From assembly GCF_003018255.1 (NCBI RefSeq), contig NZ_CP027440.1: DNA of 64,000 nucleotides. One strand, given 5' to 3'. The DNA comes from Escherichia coli. Lineage in GTDB: Bacteria; Pseudomonadota; Gammaproteobacteria; Enterobacterales; Enterobacteriaceae. Below the pieces are notes generated by a model. It saw nothing but the letters and a program-made list of their open reading frames with translations. It was not told the DNA's origin and did not search any database. Within the stretch, counting starts at the first letter, position 1; the number at the start of each line of letters is the position of its first letter. Shown one piece after another: positions 5,026 through 31,211 of this stretch. The translations under genes were made by a program, and so were the position numbers.

Positions 5026-5784
<759 letters not shown>

Positions 5785-5838
5785 ACCTGATTTCAGTATC
5801 ATGCCCAGTCATTTCTTCACCTGTGGAGCTTTTTAAGT

Positions 5839-6114
5839 ATGGCACGCGTAACTGTTCAGGACGCTGTAGAGAAAATTGGTAACCGTTTTGACCTGGTACT
5901 GGTCGCCGCGCGTCGCGCTCGTCAGATGCAGGTAGGCGGAAAGGATCCGCTGGTACCGGAAGAAAACGATAAAACCACTGTAATCGCGCTGCGCGAAATC
6001 GAAGAAGGTCTGATCAACAACCAGATCCTCGACGTTCGCGAACGCCAGGAACAGCAAGAGCAGGAAGCCGCTGAATTACAAGCCGTTACCGCTATTGCTG
6101 AAGGTCGTCGTTAA
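5839..6114 (+). CDS. rpoZ: RNA polymerase omega subunit
   Basis: 91 aa, [29 protein letters not shown]…. Confidence 0.95.
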
Positions 6115-6132
6115 TCACAAAGCGGGTCGCCC

Positions 6133-8241
6133 TTGTATCTGTTTGAAAGCCTGAATCAACTGATTCAAACCTACCTGCCGGAAGACCAAATCAAGCGTCT
6201 GCGGCAGGCGTATCTCGTTGCACGTGATGCTCACGAGGGGCAAACACGTTCAAGCGGTGAACCCTATATCACGCACCCGGTGGCGGTTGCCTGCATTCTG
6301 GCCGAGATGAAACTCGACTATGAAACGCTTATGGCGGCGCTGCTGCATGACGTGATTGAAGATACTCCCGCCACCTACCAGGACATGGAACAGCTTTTTG
6401 GTAAAAGCGTCGCCGAGCTGGTAGAGGGGGTGTCGAAACTTGATAAGCTCAAGTTCCGCGATAAGAAAGAGGCGCAGGCCGAAAACTTTCGCAAGATGAT
6501 TATGGCGATGGTGCAGGATATCCGCGTCATTCTCATCAAACTTGCCGACCGTACCCACAACATGCGCACGCTGGGCTCACTTCGCCCGGACAAACGTCGC
6601 CGCATCGCCCGTGAAACCCTCGAAATTTACAGCCCGCTGGCGCACCGTTTAGGTATCCACCACATTAAAACCGAACTCGAAGAGCTGGGTTTTGAGGCGC
6701 TGTATCCCAACCGTTATCGCGTAATCAAAGAAGTGGTGAAAGCCGCGCGCGGCAACCGTAAAGAGATGATCCAGAAGATTCTTTCTGAAATCGAAGGGCG
6801 TTTGCAGGAAGCGGGAATACCGTGCCGCGTCAGTGGTCGCGAAAAGCATCTTTATTCGATTTACTGCAAAATGGTGCTCAAAGAGCAGCGTTTTCACTCA
6901 ATCATGGACATCTACGCTTTCCGCGTGATCGTCAATGATTCTGACACCTGTTATCGCGTGCTGGGCCAGATGCACAGCCTGTACAAGCCGCGTCCGGGCC
7001 GCGTGAAAGACTATATCGCCATTCCAAAAGCGAACGGCTATCAGTCTTTGCACACCTCGATGATTGGCCCGCACGGCGTGCCGGTTGAGGTCCAGATCCG
7101 TACCGAAGATATGGATCAGATGGCGGAGATGGGTGTTGCCGCGCACTGGGCTTATAAAGAGCACGGCGAAACCAGCACTACCGCGCAAATACGCGCCCAG
7201 CGCTGGATGCAAAGCCTGCTGGAGCTGCAACAGAGTGCCGGTAGCTCGTTTGAATTTATCGAGAGCGTTAAATCCGATCTCTTCCCGGATGAGATTTACG
7301 TTTTCACACCAGAAGGGCGCATTGTCGAACTGCCTGCCGGTGCAACGCCCGTCGACTTCGCTTATGCGGTGCATACCGATATCGGTCATGCCTGCGTGGG
7401 CGCACGCGTCGACCGCCAGCCTTACCCGCTGTCGCAGCCGCTTACCAGCGGTCAAACCGTTGAAATTATTACCGCACCGGGCGCTCGCCCGAATGCCGCG
7501 TGGCTGAACTTTGTCGTTAGCTCGAAAGCGCGCGCCAAAATTCGTCAATTGCTGAAAAACCTCAAGCGTGATGATTCTGTAAGCCTGGGCCGTCGTCTGC
7601 TCAACCATGCGTTGGGTGGCAGCCGCAAGCTCAATGAAATCCCGCAGGAAAATATTCAGCGCGAGCTGGACCGCATGAAGCTGGCAACGCTTGACGATCT
7701 GCTGGCTGAAATCGGCCTTGGTAACGCAATGAGCGTGGTGGTCGCGAAAAATCTGCAACATGGGGACGCCTCCATTCCACCGGCAACCCAAAGTCACGGA
7801 CATCTGCCCATTAAAGGTGCCGATGGCGTGCTGATCACCTTTGCGAAATGCTGCCGCCCTATTCCTGGCGACCCGATTATCGCCCACGTCAGCCCCGGTA
7901 AAGGTCTGGTGATCCACCATGAATCCTGCCGTAACATCCGTGGCTACCAGAAAGAGCCAGAGAAGTTTATGGCTGTGGAATGGGATAAAGAGACGGCGCA
8001 GGAGTTCATCACCGAAATCAAGGTGGAGATGTTCAATCATCAGGGTGCGCTGGCAAACCTGACAGCGGCAATTAACACCACCACCTCGAATATTCAAAGT
8101 TTGAATACGGAAGAGAAAGATGGTCGCGTCTACAGCGCCTTTATTCGTCTGACCGCCCGTGACCGTGTGCATCTGGCGAATATCATGCGCAAAATCCGCG
8201 TGATGCCAGACGTGATTAAAGTCACCCGAAACCGAAATTAA
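6133..8241 (+). CDS. spoT: Bifunctional (p)ppGpp synthase/hydrolase SpoT
   Basis: 702 aa with HD and RelA/SpoT domains; TTG start at 6133 (LYLFESLNQL…). Confidence 0.95.
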   Translation: MYLFESLNQLIQTYLPEDQIKRLRQAYLVARDAHEGQTRSSGEPYITHPVAVACILAEMKLDYETLMAALLHDVIEDTPATYQDMEQLFGKSVAELVEGVSKLDKLKFRDKKEAQAENFRKMIMAMVQDIRVILIKLADRTHNMRTLGSLRPDKRRRIARETLEIYSPLAHRLGIHHIKTELEELGFEALYPNRYRVIKEVVKAARGNRKEMIQKILSEIEGRLQEAGIPCRVSGREKHLYSIYCKMVLKEQRFHSIMDIYAFRVIVNDSDTCYRVLGQMHSLYKPRPGRVKDYIAIPKANGYQSLHTSMIGPHGVPVEVQIRTEDMDQMAEMGVAAHWAYKEHGETSTTAQIRAQRWMQSLLELQQSAGSSFEFIESVKSDLFPDEIYVFTPEGRIVELPAGATPVDFAYAVHTDIGHACVGARVDRQPYPLSQPLTSGQTVEIITAPGARPNAAWLNFVVSSKARAKIRQLLKNLKRDDSVSLGRRLLNHALGGSRKLNEIPQENIQRELDRMKLATLDDLLAEIGLGNAMSVVVAKNLQHGDASIPPATQSHGHLPIKGADGVLITFAKCCRPIPGDPIIAHVSPGKGLVIHHESCRNIRGYQKEPEKFMAVEWDKETAQEFITEIKVEMFNHQGALANLTAAINTTTSNIQSLNTEEKDGRVYSAFIRLTARDRVHLANIMRKIRVMPDVIKVTRNRN

Positions 8242-8942: not shown

Positions 8943-11024
8943 ATGAAAGGTCGCCTGTTAGATGCTGTCCCGCTCAGTTCCCTAACGGGCGTTGGCGCAG
9001 CGCTTAGTAACAAGCTGGCGAAAATCAACCTGCATACCGTGCAGGATCTACTCTTACACCTTCCCCTGCGCTACGAAGATCGCACCCATCTCTACCCCAT
9101 CGGAGAACTACTACCGGGCGTTTATGCCACGGTGGAAGGCGAAGTGCTGAACTGCAATATCTCCTTCGGCGGTCGGCGGATGATGACCTGCCAGATCAGC
9201 GACGGTTCCGGCATTCTCACCATGCGCTTTTTCAACTTCAACGCGGCAATGAAAAATAGCCTGGCGACAGGCCGCCGCGTGCTGGCCTATGGCGAAGCAA
9301 AGCGCGGTAAATATGGTGCGGAGATGATCCACCCGGAATACCGCGTGCAGGGCGATCTCAGTACGCCAGAGTTGCAGGAAACGCTAACGCCGGTTTACCC
9401 AACAACGGAAGGCGTAAAGCAGGCCACGCTGCGTAAATTAACCGATCAGGCGCTGGATCTGCTCGACACCTGCGCCATTGAAGAACTCCTGCCGCCGGAA
9501 CTGTCACAAGGAATGATGACGCTACCGGAAGCGTTGCGCACTTTGCACCGCCCGCCGCCGACGCTACAGCTTAGCGATCTCGAAACCGGGCAGCATCCAG
9601 CACAACGCCGTCTGATTCTGGAAGAACTGCTTGCGCACAACCTCAGCATGTTGGCGTTACGCGCTGGTGCACAACGTTTCCATGCCCAGCCGCTTAGCGC
9701 CAATGACGCGCTGAAAAATAAACTCCTCGCAGCCTTACCGTTCAAGCCAACGGGCGCACAGGCACGCGTGGTGGCGGAGATCGAGCGCGATATGGCGCTG
9801 GATGCGCCGATGATGCGCCTGGTACAGGGCGATGTAGGTTCCGGTAAAACGCTGGTCGCTGCCCTCGCCGCGCTGCGTGCGATTGCGCACGGCAAACAGG
9901 TGGCATTGATGGCACCAACCGAATTACTCGCCGAACAGCACGCGAATAACTTCCGCAACTGGTTTGCACCGCTCGGTATCGAAGTGGGCTGGCTCGCCGG
10001 TAAGCAGAAAGGTAAAGCGCGACTGGCACAGCAGGAAGCCATCGCCAGCGGTCAGGTGCAGATGATTGTCGGAACACACGCCATCTTCCAGGAACAGGTG
10101 CAGTTTAACGGCCTGGCGCTGGTGATTATCGACGAACAGCATCGTTTTGGCGTGCATCAGCGTCTGGCGTTATGGGAGAAAGGCCAGCAGCAAGGCTTCC
10201 ATCCTCATCAGTTGATCATGACCGCCACGCCGATCCCCCGAACGCTGGCAATGACTGCGTATGCTGATCTCGATACCTCGGTGATAGATGAGCTGCCGCC
10301 AGGCCGCACGCCAGTGACTACGGTCGCTATTCCTGATACCCGCCGTACCGACATTATTGACCGCGTGCGCCACGCCTGCATAACTGAAGGTCGTCAGGCA
10401 TACTGGGTTTGTACGTTGATTGAAGAGTCAGAGTTACTGGAAGCGCAGGCGGCGGAAGCTACCTGGGAAGAGTTGAAACTGGCGCTACCAGAGTTGAATG
10501 TTGGTCTGGTACACGGACGGATGAAACCAGCCGAGAAGCAGGCCGTCATGGCATCATTTAAACAAGGCGAGTTACACCTGCTGGTTGCCACTACCGTTAT
10601 TGAAGTCGGCGTTGATGTGCCTAACGCCAGCCTGATGATTATCGAAAACCCGGAGCGTCTGGGTCTGGCGCAGTTGCACCAGCTTCGCGGGCGCGTGGGA
10701 CGTGGTGCGGTGGCTTCTCACTGCGTGCTGCTCTACAAAACGCCGCTCTCTAAAACGGCGCAAATTCGTCTGCAAGTACTGCGCGACAGCAACGACGGGT
10801 TTGTGATTGCGCAAAAAGATCTGGAGATTCGCGGCCCTGGCGAATTGTTAGGCACGCGTCAGACGGGTAATGCTGAATTTAAAGTGGCGGATTTACTGCG
10901 CGATCAGGCGATGATCCCGGAAGTTCAGCGCCTGGCACGCCATATTCACGAACGTTACCCACAGCAGGCAAAAGCCCTGATAGAACGCTGGATGCCAGAA
11001 ACGGAACGTTACTCGAATGCGTAA
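8943..11024 (+). CDS. recG: ATP-dependent DNA helicase RecG
   Basis: Walker A GDVGSGKT, DEQH box; ATG at 8943 gives 693 aa. Confidence 0.95.
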   Translation: MKGRLLDAVPLSSLTGVGAALSNKLAKINLHTVQDLLLHLPLRYEDRTHLYPIGELLPGVYATVEGEVLNCNISFGGRRMMTCQISDGSGILTMRFFNFNAAMKNSLATGRRVLAYGEAKRGKYGAEMIHPEYRVQGDLSTPELQETLTPVYPTTEGVKQATLRKLTDQALDLLDTCAIEELLPPELSQGMMTLPEALRTLHRPPPTLQLSDLETGQHPAQRRLILEELLAHNLSMLALRAGAQRFHAQPLSANDALKNKLLAALPFKPTGAQARVVAEIERDMALDAPMMRLVQGDVGSGKTLVAALAALRAIAHGKQVALMAPTELLAEQHANNFRNWFAPLGIEVGWLAGKQKGKARLAQQEAIASGQVQMIVGTHAIFQEQVQFNGLALVIIDEQHRFGVHQRLALWEKGQQQGFHPHQLIMTATPIPRTLAMTAYADLDTSVIDELPPGRTPVTTVAIPDTRRTDIIDRVRHACITEGRQAYWVCTLIEESELLEAQAAEATWEELKLALPELNVGLVHGRMKPAEKQAVMASFKQGELHLLVATTVIEVGVDVPNASLMIIENPERLGLAQLHQLRGRVGRGAVASHCVLLYKTPLSKTAQIRLQVLRDSNDGFVIAQKDLEIRGPGELLGTRQTGNAEFKVADLLRDQAMIPEVQRLARHIHERYPQQAKALIERWMPETERYSNA

Positions 11025-27047: not shown

Positions 27048-27142
27048 GGAAGATCGTCGTCTCCGGTGAGGCGGCTGGACTTCAAATCCAGTTGGGGCCG
27101 CCAGCGGTCCCGGGCAGGTTCGACTCCTGTGATCTTCCGCCA
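27048..27142 (+). tRNA. selC: tRNA-Sec (selenocysteine)
   Basis: 95 nt GGAAGATCGTCGTCTCCGGTGAGGCGGCTGGACTTCAAATCCAG…TCGACTCCTGTGATCTTCCGCCA with UCA anticodon; TATAAT at 27011-27016. Confidence 0.97.
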
Positions 27143-27194
27143 AAATGCCTCTTCTGAACTCTCCCGACGTCAACAACACTCCTTCGGAGGCGAC

Positions 27195-28232
27195 ATGTCA
27201 GACAAAGACTTAACCCAGCCCCCAGCAGGCGAGTTTATTATGTTTGCCAGCGGTGACGGAAGAGTGCGTGTTGAATGTCGCTTTGAGTCAGACACAATCT
27301 GGTTATCCCAGGCGGCAATGGCTGAACTGTACGATAAAGATGTTCGCACTATTAACGAACATTTAATCAATATATTTTCCGAAGGTGAACTTGTTCAAAA
27401 CTCAACCATCCGGAAATTCCGGATAGTTCGCCAGGAAGGAAAACGTCAGGTTTCCAGAGAGATAGACCATTACAACCTCGAAGCCATTCTCGCTGTCGGC
27501 TATCGCGTTCGCTCGCCTCGAGGCACGCAATTCCGCCAGTGGGCCACCCAGACGCTTCAGGAATACCTGATCAAAGGTTTTGTGATGGACGATGAGCGGC
27601 TGAAGAATCCGCCTGTCGGTTCATCGGTTGTGCCCGACTATTTTGATGAGATGCTTGAACGCATCCGCGATATTCGCGCCAGCGAGCGTCGGGTATATTT
27701 GCGGGTGCGGGAGATCTTTGCTTTAGCTGCCGACTATCAGCCATCACTAAAAGAAACCACGCAATTTTTTCAAACCATCCAGAATAAACTGCATTTTGCC
27801 TGTACCGGGCATACCGCTGCGGAACTCATCCACAAACGAGCAGATGCCAGCCAGCCGCACATGGGCTTGACCAGTTATAAAGGTGAAGAGGTACGTAAGG
27901 GCGACGTGACGGTGGCAAAAAATTATCTCACCCAGGATGAGGTCAGCGAACTTAATCGCGTGGTTAATATGTGGCTGGACTTTGCCGAGGATCAGGCCCG
28001 TCGTCGTCAGCAAGTCTTTTTGCGCGACTGGCAGGATAAGCTGGATCAGTTCCTGCAATTTAACGACCGAGAGGTTCTACAGGGCGCTGGTAAAATCAGC
28101 AAGAAAATGGCCGATGAAAAAGCGCAGGCGGAGTATGTTCAGTTTGCCGAACAACAACGGCGCTTAAAAGAAGCCGAAGGCGAGAAGGATATCGCTGGTT
28201 TGCTACAGTGGAATAAAGAGTCGAAAAAGTAG
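27195..28232 (+). CDS. RhuM-family protein (selC-islet cargo)
   Basis: 345 aa from ATG 27195 with GGAGG RBS; N-terminus …EFIMFASGDGRVRVECRFESDTIWLSQAAMAELY… is typical of RhuM family; track ORF starts at a GTG inside selC. Confidence 0.75.
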   Translation: MSDKDLTQPPAGEFIMFASGDGRVRVECRFESDTIWLSQAAMAELYDKDVRTINEHLINIFSEGELVQNSTIRKFRIVRQEGKRQVSREIDHYNLEAILAVGYRVRSPRGTQFRQWATQTLQEYLIKGFVMDDERLKNPPVGSSVVPDYFDEMLERIRDIRASERRVYLRVREIFALAADYQPSLKETTQFFQTIQNKLHFACTGHTAAELIHKRADASQPHMGLTSYKGEEVRKGDVTVAKNYLTQDEVSELNRVVNMWLDFAEDQARRRQQVFLRDWQDKLDQFLQFNDREVLQGAGKISKKMADEKAQAEYVQFAEQQRRLKEAEGEKDIAGLLQWNKESKK

Positions 28233-28338
28233 CCCGGAATCCCCCCAAACGCCATACGCAAAACCATTTGGGGGTACTTATGGGGTTACTCATTTATCAA
28301 ATTCAAAATATAAACATTAAATCAATAACTTAACCATC

Positions 28339-28375
28339 AAATGCGACTCCTGTGATCGCCAAAATGCCTCTTCAG
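28339..28375 (+). repeat. Imperfect direct repeat of the selC 3' end plus flank (att-like scar)
   Basis: gcgactcctgtgatcgccaaaatgcctcttcagtga matches 27121-27158 apart from a 3-bp gap and about 2 mismatches. Confidence 0.7.
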
Positions 28376-28439
28376 TGATCCCCATCCTGCTTATTTCTGA
28401 GCAACCTGACCCTGCTGATGTATCTGGTAGTATGACAGA

Positions 28440-28661
28440 GTGATTCGTTTTTCTTGCCGAGTGTACGAAAACGTCTTCCTTGCCACCGACTATCAACCGT
28501 CACTCAAAAAAACCTCTCTTTTTTTCAAGCTATCAAGAATAAGTTGCATTTTATCTGCACCGGACACCAGCCATCCATATATGGCTTTTACCTGCTACAA
28601 AGATGAAGAAGTGCATAAATGTGATGTTAAAACAATCAAAGAAAAATTACATGCGCAATAA
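28440..28661 (+). pseudogene. Internal fragment of a second rhuM-like gene
   Basis: …FLATDYQPSLKKTSLFF…YMAFTCYKDEEVHKCDVKTIKEKL aligns to residues about 170-250 of the intact copy at roughly 70% nucleotide identity; no start or N-terminal domain. Confidence 0.65.
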
Positions 28662-28801
28662 TTTCACTATAACATTATAATCCATGGTGAAAATAACACT
28701 GCACAAGGATTGTCATCATCAAACTCATCGGAACTATTTTTTCTGTCGTCATTGGTGTAATACTGATTGTAAGTATCCTTTCAGGAGATTATTTTTGCCG
28801 T

Positions 28802-29299
28802 GTGGGGCATGGAACTTGTAAAGCAGCCAAAAGCGCTAGGCATTTAATTGAAAGTAAAGAGAAAAACAGAAGTAGTCGCGTCAAAGTCTTTAGCACGCAT
28901 ATTAATTTGAGTCATCCAGCGGCATCCTGGCTAGCAACTCAAACTTGCGCTAACAATATATTCAATCTACTTCAAAACAATAATGCCATTTATTTATTCG
29001 AAAACGATAATAAAATTGAACTGCGAATGGGGTATGATTCTTTTTTTTCTATTGAAACGATTGATAAAATTAACAAAGAAAACATCAAAGAAATAAAACT
29101 AAAAAATGAGACAACATATGTTTCTCTTCCTAATCCAACCATTTTAATAACCACGACATCAACACCTGAACGACAGTTTTCTATTTCTGTTCTGGATGAT
29201 GATAACAAAGAAAATCTACCTACCGATACCGCACCTTGTTTTACAATTGGTATTCCTGATGAATATACTAAAGCCATAGAGTTATTGAACATTAAATAA
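28802..29299 (+). CDS. Hypothetical protein in AT-rich DNA, no recognisable family
   Basis: 165-codon ORF from GTG in very low-GC sequence; no clear RBS; first in-frame ATG at 29027. Confidence 0.3.
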   Translation: MGHGTCKAAKSARHLIESKEKNRSSRVKVFSTHINLSHPAASWLATQTCANNIFNLLQNNNAIYLFENDNKIELRMGYDSFFSIETIDKINKENIKEIKLKNETTYVSLPNPTILITTTSTPERQFSISVLDDDNKENLPTDTAPCFTIGIPDEYTKAIELLNIK

Positions 29300-30392: not shown

Positions 30393-31211
30393 TTACCAGC
30401 CAGGCACCGCGCCACCGTTAAAGATGGTTTCTGCCGCTTTAGCGACTTCGGATGATTGATAAGATTGCAGAAATTCCTTCACGTTTTCTGCATTCTTATT
30501 ATCTTCCCGTGCTACCAGAATGTTCACATACGGCGAATTTTTATCTTCAATAAATACGCTGTCGTGCACCGGAGAAAGTCCGGTCTGCTGAATGTAAGTG
30601 GTGCTGATAATCGCCACATCAACTTTGGGATCATCCAGTACGCGCGGGAGCTGCGCCCCCTCGAGTTCCATAATCTGCAAATGACGAGGATTATCGGTTA
30701 TATCCAGCGCGGTAGGTAATAACCCTTTTCCCTCTTTCAGAGTAATTAGCTTCTCTTTTTGCAACAGTAAAAGCGCACGACCAAGGTTGGTCGGGTCGTT
30801 GGGGATCGCCACTGTCGCGCCTTCTTTTATTTGCGCCACGGTTTTGATTTTTTTGGAATAACCCGCCATGGGGAAGACAAACGTATTTCCCACCGCTACC
30901 AGTTTATAACCATGCGCCTGATTATCTTGTTCAAGAAAGGGTCGATGCTGGAAGACGTTCGCATCAAGCTCGCCATGATTTGTCGCATCGTTCGGTAGCA
31001 ACGAACCGCTAAATCCTACCAGTTCAACATCGAGGCCATATTTCTCTTTTGCCACCTTTTTAGCGACTTCCGCGACATCTTGTTCTGCGCCATTAATAAC
31101 GCCCACTTTAATGTGCTTTTCATCGCTGCTGCTCTGGTCGCAACCTGCCAGCAGAATTCCTGCCAGTAATAATGCGGCCCCCGCCCGTAGATGATGTGTT
31201 GTCAGTTTCAC
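30393..31211 (-). CDS. nlpA: Lipoprotein 28 (methionine-binding lipoprotein family)
   Basis: 272 aa with lipobox LLAGC. Confidence 0.9.
   Translation of the reverse strand: MKLTTHHLRAGAALLLAGILLAGCDQSSSDEKHIKVGVINGAEQDVAEVAKKVAKEKYGLDVELVGFSGSLLPNDATNHGELDANVFQHRPFLEQDNQAHGYKLVAVGNTFVFPMAGYSKKIKTVAQIKEGATVAIPNDPTNLGRALLLLQKEKLITLKEGKGLLPTALDITDNPRHLQIMELEGAQLPRVLDDPKVDVAIISTTYIQQTGLSPVHDSVFIEDKNSPYVNILVAREDNKNAENVKEFLQSYQSSEVAKAAETIFNGGAVPGW

Follow-up and report, generated by a model that had tools for sequence, protein, structure and literature searches.

The UUG start codon of spoT in Escherichia coli and its conservation in related species

The UUG start of spoT, its inefficiency and its conservation are already known from curated annotation and from papers, and the original report of the spoT sequence (Sarubbi et al. 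1989) reportedly also proposed a UUG start. What is added here is a quantitative confirmation over about 5,400 Escherichia coli genomes, 80 species and eight distant homologues. Published work on non-AUG initiation covers its stimulation by polyamines, its dependence on IF2 and IF3, and the relative insensitivity of UUG to ppGpp. The closest described systems are cya (cyaA) and gshA, which like spoT have an inefficient UUG codon and a normally placed Shine-Dalgarno (SD) sequence, and for which polyamine stimulation has been reported. In the case of gshA, replacing UUG by AUG increased basal GshA synthesis 3.0-fold and reduced the polyamine stimulation from 2.4-fold to 1.1-fold (PMC4405209). 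The spoT gene is itself listed among the genes with an inefficient UUG or GUG start that are stimulated by polyamines (PMC4405209, PMC7177335), a claim for which both papers cite Terui et al. 2012 (PMID 22138225), and Table 1 of PMC7177335 gives it as a UUG/GUG start with a normally positioned SD. By its start codon and the position of its SD, spoT fits the polyamine modulon class 'inefficient initiation codon'. UUG has been described as phylogenetically conserved in cyaA and spoT, with the cyaA codon reported to be conserved in gammaproteobacteria, and as the non-AUG codon least sensitive to ppGpp (PMC5499595). Furthermore, a TTG start has been chosen deliberately to hold plasmid-borne SpoT low (PMC6917717). 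The first-pass annotation of the DNA analysed here had referred to a known use of UUG for spoT, and PMC4405209, PMC7177335 and PMC5499595 do already describe this start.

A further parallel is infC, which encodes IF3 and has an AUU start; like the UUG of spoT, this is a phylogenetically conserved non-AUG start for a regulatory protein, whose level it sets or regulates (PMC5499595). The infC mechanism is established, with IF3 discriminating against its own AUU codon, whereas no comparable feedback has been demonstrated for spoT, and the UUG of spoT is a canonical start while the AUU of infC is near-cognate. Unlike cya and gshA, spoT is operon-internal and begins 18 nt after the preceding stop codon, so that a hand-over of ribosomes from rpoZ could contribute to its translation. 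With regard to genome-wide surveys of start sites, spoT is not mentioned in the main text of the Ribo-RET paper, and spoT/b3650 was not found among the entries listed in the TRAINSPOTTER N-terminomics tables.

The locus and its initiation site

The window, the 64,000-nucleotide stretch of E. coli DNA that was analysed here, carries a spoT locus from which that of E. coli K-12 (b3650, NP_418107.1) does not differ substantially: the start-region sequence, the 702-aa product, the TTG codon and the rpoZ-spoT-trmH-recG context are the same, and the window represents another E. coli strain with accessory genes elsewhere. The gene order gmk-rpoZ-spoT-trmH-recG is also that of K-12 (b3648-b3652). The features of the locus are as follows.

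5161-5784: gmk, annotated ATG start, 207 aa
5773..5802, plus strand: sigma-70 promoter-like match TTGGCA-18-TATCAT upstream of rpoZ, a consensus match only
5839..6114, plus strand: rpoZ, coding sequence of the RNA polymerase omega subunit, ATG start, TAA stop at 6112-6114, directly upstream of spoT
6115..6132, plus strand: rpoZ-spoT spacer of 18 nt, TCACAAAGCGGGTCGCCC, with no start codon, promoter or terminator
6124..6127, plus strand: weak Shine-Dalgarno-like GGGT, at -9 to -6 from the TTG, with RGGT or RGG in most relatives
6133..6135, plus strand: spoT start codon TTG (UUG), from sequence, annotation, comparison and literature
6133..8241, plus strand: spoT coding sequence, bifunctional (p)ppGpp synthetase/hydrolase, 702 aa
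8248-8937: trmH
8943-11024: recG

The spoT open reading frame at 6133-8241 comprises 2109 nt, that is 702 codons and a stop. In E. coli it shares its reading frame with rpoZ, the two being separated by the TAA and six sense codons (TCA CAA AGC GGG TCG CCC). Since neither an ATG, GTG or TTG nor a near-cognate start is found among these six codons, TTG 6133 is the sole start that yields the full-length protein, just as the first-pass annotation had stated. Its distance of 19 nt from the rpoZ stop is correct if counted from base to base, but the untranslated spacer itself is 18 nt long. Similarly, the N-terminus that it gave, LYLFES, is right from the second residue on; since initiator tRNA decodes UUG as formyl-Met, the first residue should be read as (f)Met, and the N-terminus of SpoT is (f)Met-YLFES rather than the literal translation. 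The next canonical starts in the frame come at codon 50 (GTG, 6280) and codon 59 (ATG, 6307).

The initiation site has a Shine-Dalgarno-like element that is weak but present and lies at a workable distance from the TTG. Its predicted duplex with the anti-SD has an energy of -5.9 kcal/mol in the window, the median over the 80 species described below being -3.9 kcal/mol, and an RGG motif recurs in the upstream sequences of the relatives. No stable RNA structure was found at the spoT start, either in a single-sequence fold, which was no better than that of shuffled sequences (z = 0.13), or with RNAalifold on a 22-species alignment, which returned 0 consensus pairs for the start region; on the basis of these two results we rejected an RNA structure that occludes the start. 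A promoter or terminator internal to the rpoZ-spoT spacer was rejected as well, since no promoter-like or terminator-like site was found between the two genes. The promoter-like match at 5773..5802 is a possible source of an rpoZ-spoT co-transcript; the scan that produced it returned 2 sites where 3.0 are expected in shuffled sequences, which is no evidence on its own.

The length of the rpoZ-spoT spacer is 17-30 nt in the 80 species, most commonly 18-19 nt, and a short spacer of constrained length would be compatible with a hand-over of ribosomes from rpoZ. Its phase varies, with a length modulo 3 of 0, 1 and 2 in 33, 30 and 17 species, respectively, and the reading frame that rpoZ and spoT share in E. 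coli thus looks incidental.

The encoded protein is, by its domains, its orthology and its synteny with K-12 spoT, the long RSH enzyme SpoT. Pfam HD_4 covers residues 26-175 (E 7e-54) and RelA_SpoT residues 235-345 (E 1.7e-42), both well in excess of the gathering cut-offs, and Pfam HD covers residues 45-144. The C-terminal regulatory domains follow as TGS (388-447), RelA_AH_RIS (459-541) and ACT_4 (622-699). Solved Rel/SpoT structures (e.g. 7qpr, 1vj7, 6s2t and 8acu) align from SpoT residues 6-13.

Conservation of the start codon and alternative starts

Within E. coli, the region 5700-6700 of the window matches 5,424 of 5,426 complete genomes at 95% identity or more; the match is chromosomal in every case, the genes that it overlaps are annotated as gmk, rpoZ and spoT, and that to strain JNE23-011 is 100%. 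The RefSeq PGAP annotation of the closest strain starts spoT at the base that corresponds to 6133, and so does the curated K-12 MG1655 record (b3650, NP_418107.1, 3822400..3824508), the K-12 sequence around the spoT start being identical to that of the window. Sequence, open reading frame, annotation and the cross-species alignment described below thus all place the beginning of spoT at the TTG that the first-pass annotation had named. Fixation of this codon was tested by megablast of a 53-nt query (6108-6160), with the TTG at query positions 26-28, against the 5,426 complete genomes. The megablast seed is an exact 28-mer, and a single substitution in the TTG means that a genome cannot be seeded. 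The query matched 5,423 of the 5,426 genomes, with an identity of 99% or more in 5,416, and one genome with a spoT locus gave no match. The TTG start of spoT is fixed in essentially all E. coli.

The cross-species scan used one genome per species and comprised 80 loci, from Enterobacterales and two Photobacterium. In this set of related species, whose counts are descriptive and do not stand for independent events, the codon aligned to SpoT residue 1 is TTG in 79/80 and GTG in 1/80, the single exception being the endosymbiont Ca. Steffania. An alternative start upstream is absent in most of the 80 species, and eight of them have an in-frame stop 3 nt before the TTG. Among the first 120 codons there are 13 that are conserved as Leu; codon 1 alone is represented by a single codon (79/79 TTG), while each of the remaining twelve uses 3-6 synonymous codons, and the share of TTG among the other Leu codons of the 80-species set is 6.5%. 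Since only start codons occur at codon 1, with no synonymous drift, it behaves as a start and not as a Leu codon. It is such comparative data, and not the presence of a TTG as such, that identify the true start.

At the nucleotide level, the first eight codons of spoT (6133-6160 in the window) show unusually high conservation across genera. All of the 22 aligned species have TTGTA, and GAA, AGC and AAT in the early codons are each present in at least 89% of the 80 species. The nucleotide conservation of this stretch exceeds what the amino acids need and may reflect a constraint on the initiation region, and part of the TTG invariance could reflect such a general constraint.

More distant relatives were sampled by a search of 50%-identity cluster representatives, and the DNA was read for eight homologues with 54-72% identity. 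Many full-length SpoT-like proteins align 1:1 with E. coli SpoT at the N-terminus, with the pattern M-x-x-F/Y-x-x-L. Of the eight homologues, six begin with ATG, one with TTG and one with GTG, and each has an in-frame stop 3-42 nt upstream of the start. Six of the eight have rpoZ upstream; the other two lack it and start at the same residue. Because the aligned first residue is also the start in these distant homologues, the N-terminal position of SpoT is ancient. The TTG itself is, on this comparison, a feature fixed in the Enterobacterales/Vibrionaceae lineage, most of the distant homologues sampled using ATG. An alignment of N-termini with SpoT orthologues had been proposed as a check on the TTG, with a downstream ATG start as the outcome that would speak against it; the orthologues begin at the aligned first residue, mostly with ATG.

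These data bear directly on the alternatives to a start at TTG 6133. SpoT might start downstream, at GTG codon 50 or ATG codon 59, with the preceding 49-58 codons as a leader; these are the next in-frame GTG and ATG, and 6307 is what ATG-only gene calling would choose. However, residues 1-49 combine conservation of the protein with variation at synonymous sites in the 80 species, which is a coding signature, and a start at codon 50 or 59 would lose the beginning of the HD hydrolase domain, given that HD_4 extends from residue 26 and HD from residue 45 and that the Rel/SpoT structures align from residues 6-13. The distant homologues begin at aligned residue 1, and SD-like sequence is absent upstream of both GTG 6280 and ATG 6307. 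We therefore rejected the downstream starts, which are extremely improbable. We attach just as little weight to initiation at the near-cognate CTG codon 3 (6139), with the TTG untranslated or merely adjacent. This codon is in frame 6 nt downstream of the TTG and would share the same SD, but it is replaced by ATT, ATC, CTT or TTA in 10/80 species, while codon 1 is only TTG or GTG, both of them canonical; the efficiency of CUG is about 1-2% of that of AUG, compared to 10-100% for GUG and UUG (PMC5499595). The ATG of the distant homologues, moreover, stands at aligned residue 1 and not at residue 3, and the CTG start was rejected on these three grounds. Finally, readthrough of the rpoZ stop could yield SpoT, wholly or in part, as a fusion to omega, with the TTG as an internal Leu codon, as the common frame of rpoZ (5839-6114) and spoT (6133 onwards) and the six sense codons between them would allow. 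However, the phase of the spacer is not conserved among the 80 species; tandem stops follow rpoZ in many species (TAATTAA, TAATTAG, TAATAA), in addition to the further in-frame stop directly before the TTG in the eight species mentioned above, and the two distant homologues that have no upstream rpoZ start at the same residue. TAA is also an efficient stop codon, which counts against readthrough. With the phase not conserved and extra stops common, the fusion was rejected, and the chance that it is made is minute. Taken together, sequence, annotation, comparison, domains and literature indicate that translation of spoT genuinely begins at TTG 6133, to which we assign a probability of roughly 96%.

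Given that the TTG is the start, its invariance might nevertheless have no regulatory meaning and be due to a tolerated weak codon, to a sequence constraint over about 25 nt or to shared ancestry. The strong nucleotide-level conservation of the first eight codons is in keeping with this, as is the relatedness of the 80 species, the counts from which are not independent; and the prevalence of ATG among the distant homologues means that SpoT can function without a TTG start. On the other hand, synonymous sites in codons 2-8 vary in 6-34% of the species, while the TTG changes only to GTG. Some 5,400 E. coli genomes share the fixed TTG, in contrast to the nlpA start of this window, for which both ATG and GTG occur within the species. 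The published TTG-dependent polyamine stimulation also argues for a functional consequence. On balance we consider it unlikely that the invariance of the TTG has no regulatory meaning, while giving this explanation appreciable weight.

Other start codons and accessory segments in the window

Placing PGAP annotations on the window by BLAST yielded 58 coding sequences. The start codon is ATG in 54 of these, TTG in spoT, and GTG in nlpA and in a hypothetical coding sequence at 28802-29299; ysdE stands apart. The GTG start of nlpA is situated as follows.

31209..31211, minus strand: nlpA GTG start, with AAAGGA upstream and an in-frame stop 15 nt upstream

The first-pass annotation had named nlpA and, with less confidence, yidL as further genes with non-ATG starts. 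For nlpA this is true in the window, but the GTG is a strain allele: K-12 has ATG, as does JNE23-011, otherwise the closest strain. Of the roughly 5,367 E. coli genomes that bear nlpA, at least 697 have the GTG allele, from which PGAP annotates the gene. For yidL the suggestion did not hold. The gene is annotated from ATG 51060, both in K-12 and by PGAP, and this codon is preceded by a good Shine-Dalgarno sequence, GGAGGG; the sole in-frame alternative upstream is GTG 51030. The yidL product has 297 aa in K-12 and 288 aa in JNE23-011, and the difference is C-terminal.

In ysdE (24 aa, K-12 b4798), at 45159-45164 on the minus strand, the annotated ATG is ATA in the window owing to a single G-to-A change, and an in-frame TTG lies one codon upstream. 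Judging from these letters, the small ORF would in the window strain either have lost its start, use AUA or start at UUG. As for gmk, the mechanical list of open reading frames extends the gene to GTG 5104 (226 aa), compared to the annotated ATG at 5161 (207 aa). A longest-ORF rule thus makes some genes too long, in the same way as a rule that accepts ATG alone cuts spoT short.

Two segments of the window concern gene content. An eight-gene cluster at 15807-22750 (minus strand), between yicH and yicI, encodes a D-lyxose/mannose isomerase, a ROK kinase, two aldolases, fructose-type PTS components IIC, IIB and IIA, and a BglG-family antiterminator. Between spoT and tRNA-Sec the window has about 7.1 kb more DNA than K-12, in keeping with an accessory insertion of the cluster when compared to K-12. 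Downstream of tRNA-Sec (selC), at about 27048-29299, lie a RhuM-family gene and the hypothetical coding sequence with the GTG start (28802-29299), at a position where K-12 has yicT and setC. Since selC is a known integration hot spot, this segment is probably an island remnant.

A probable role of the UUG codon in SpoT synthesis

We propose that the UUG at 6133 is read by initiator fMet-tRNA, giving a 702-aa SpoT that begins Met-Tyr-Leu-Phe-Glu. Because the 18-nt spacer contains neither promoter nor terminator, spoT would be transcribed together with rpoZ, and ribosomes would initiate at a site that is free of structure and has both a weak Shine-Dalgarno sequence (GGGT, -9 to -6) and a weak start codon. 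The level of SpoT would be low relative to that of the co-transcribed omega subunit, and according to the literature it may be adjustable through factors affecting initiation at non-AUG codons. Low, tunable synthesis of SpoT from the rpoZ-spoT transcript is therefore the likely role of the UUG start; for the quantitative effect on the SpoT level, as for any regulatory role, we infer from the sequence or draw on published work.

A more specific and rather doubtful proposal, which we put forward tentatively, is that UUG is a lineage-specific regulatory device that would set the SpoT:omega ratio and provide translational feedback in the stringent response. The codon is fixed in essentially all E. 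coli and present in 79 of the 80 species, whereas AUG prevails among the distant homologues sampled, and its position 17-30 nt beyond the rpoZ stop, together with the weak SD, would set the ratio. As for the feedback, initiation at UUG reportedly responds to polyamines and is less affected by ppGpp than that at any other non-AUG codon. If the proposal is true, UUG could sustain synthesis of the ppGpp hydrolase at high ppGpp; even so, this reading would extend a suggestion already hinted at in PMC5499595.

For annotation, the lesson is that an ATG-only call strips SpoT of its first 58 residues, including the start of the catalytic HD domain, in line with the warning of the first-pass annotation that such calls truncate genes of this kind. 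As to the biology, SpoT is the ppGpp hydrolase that relA+ cells cannot do without, and basal ppGpp is set by how much of it is present relative to RelA. A weak and conserved start codon would be one factor that holds the amount of SpoT low.
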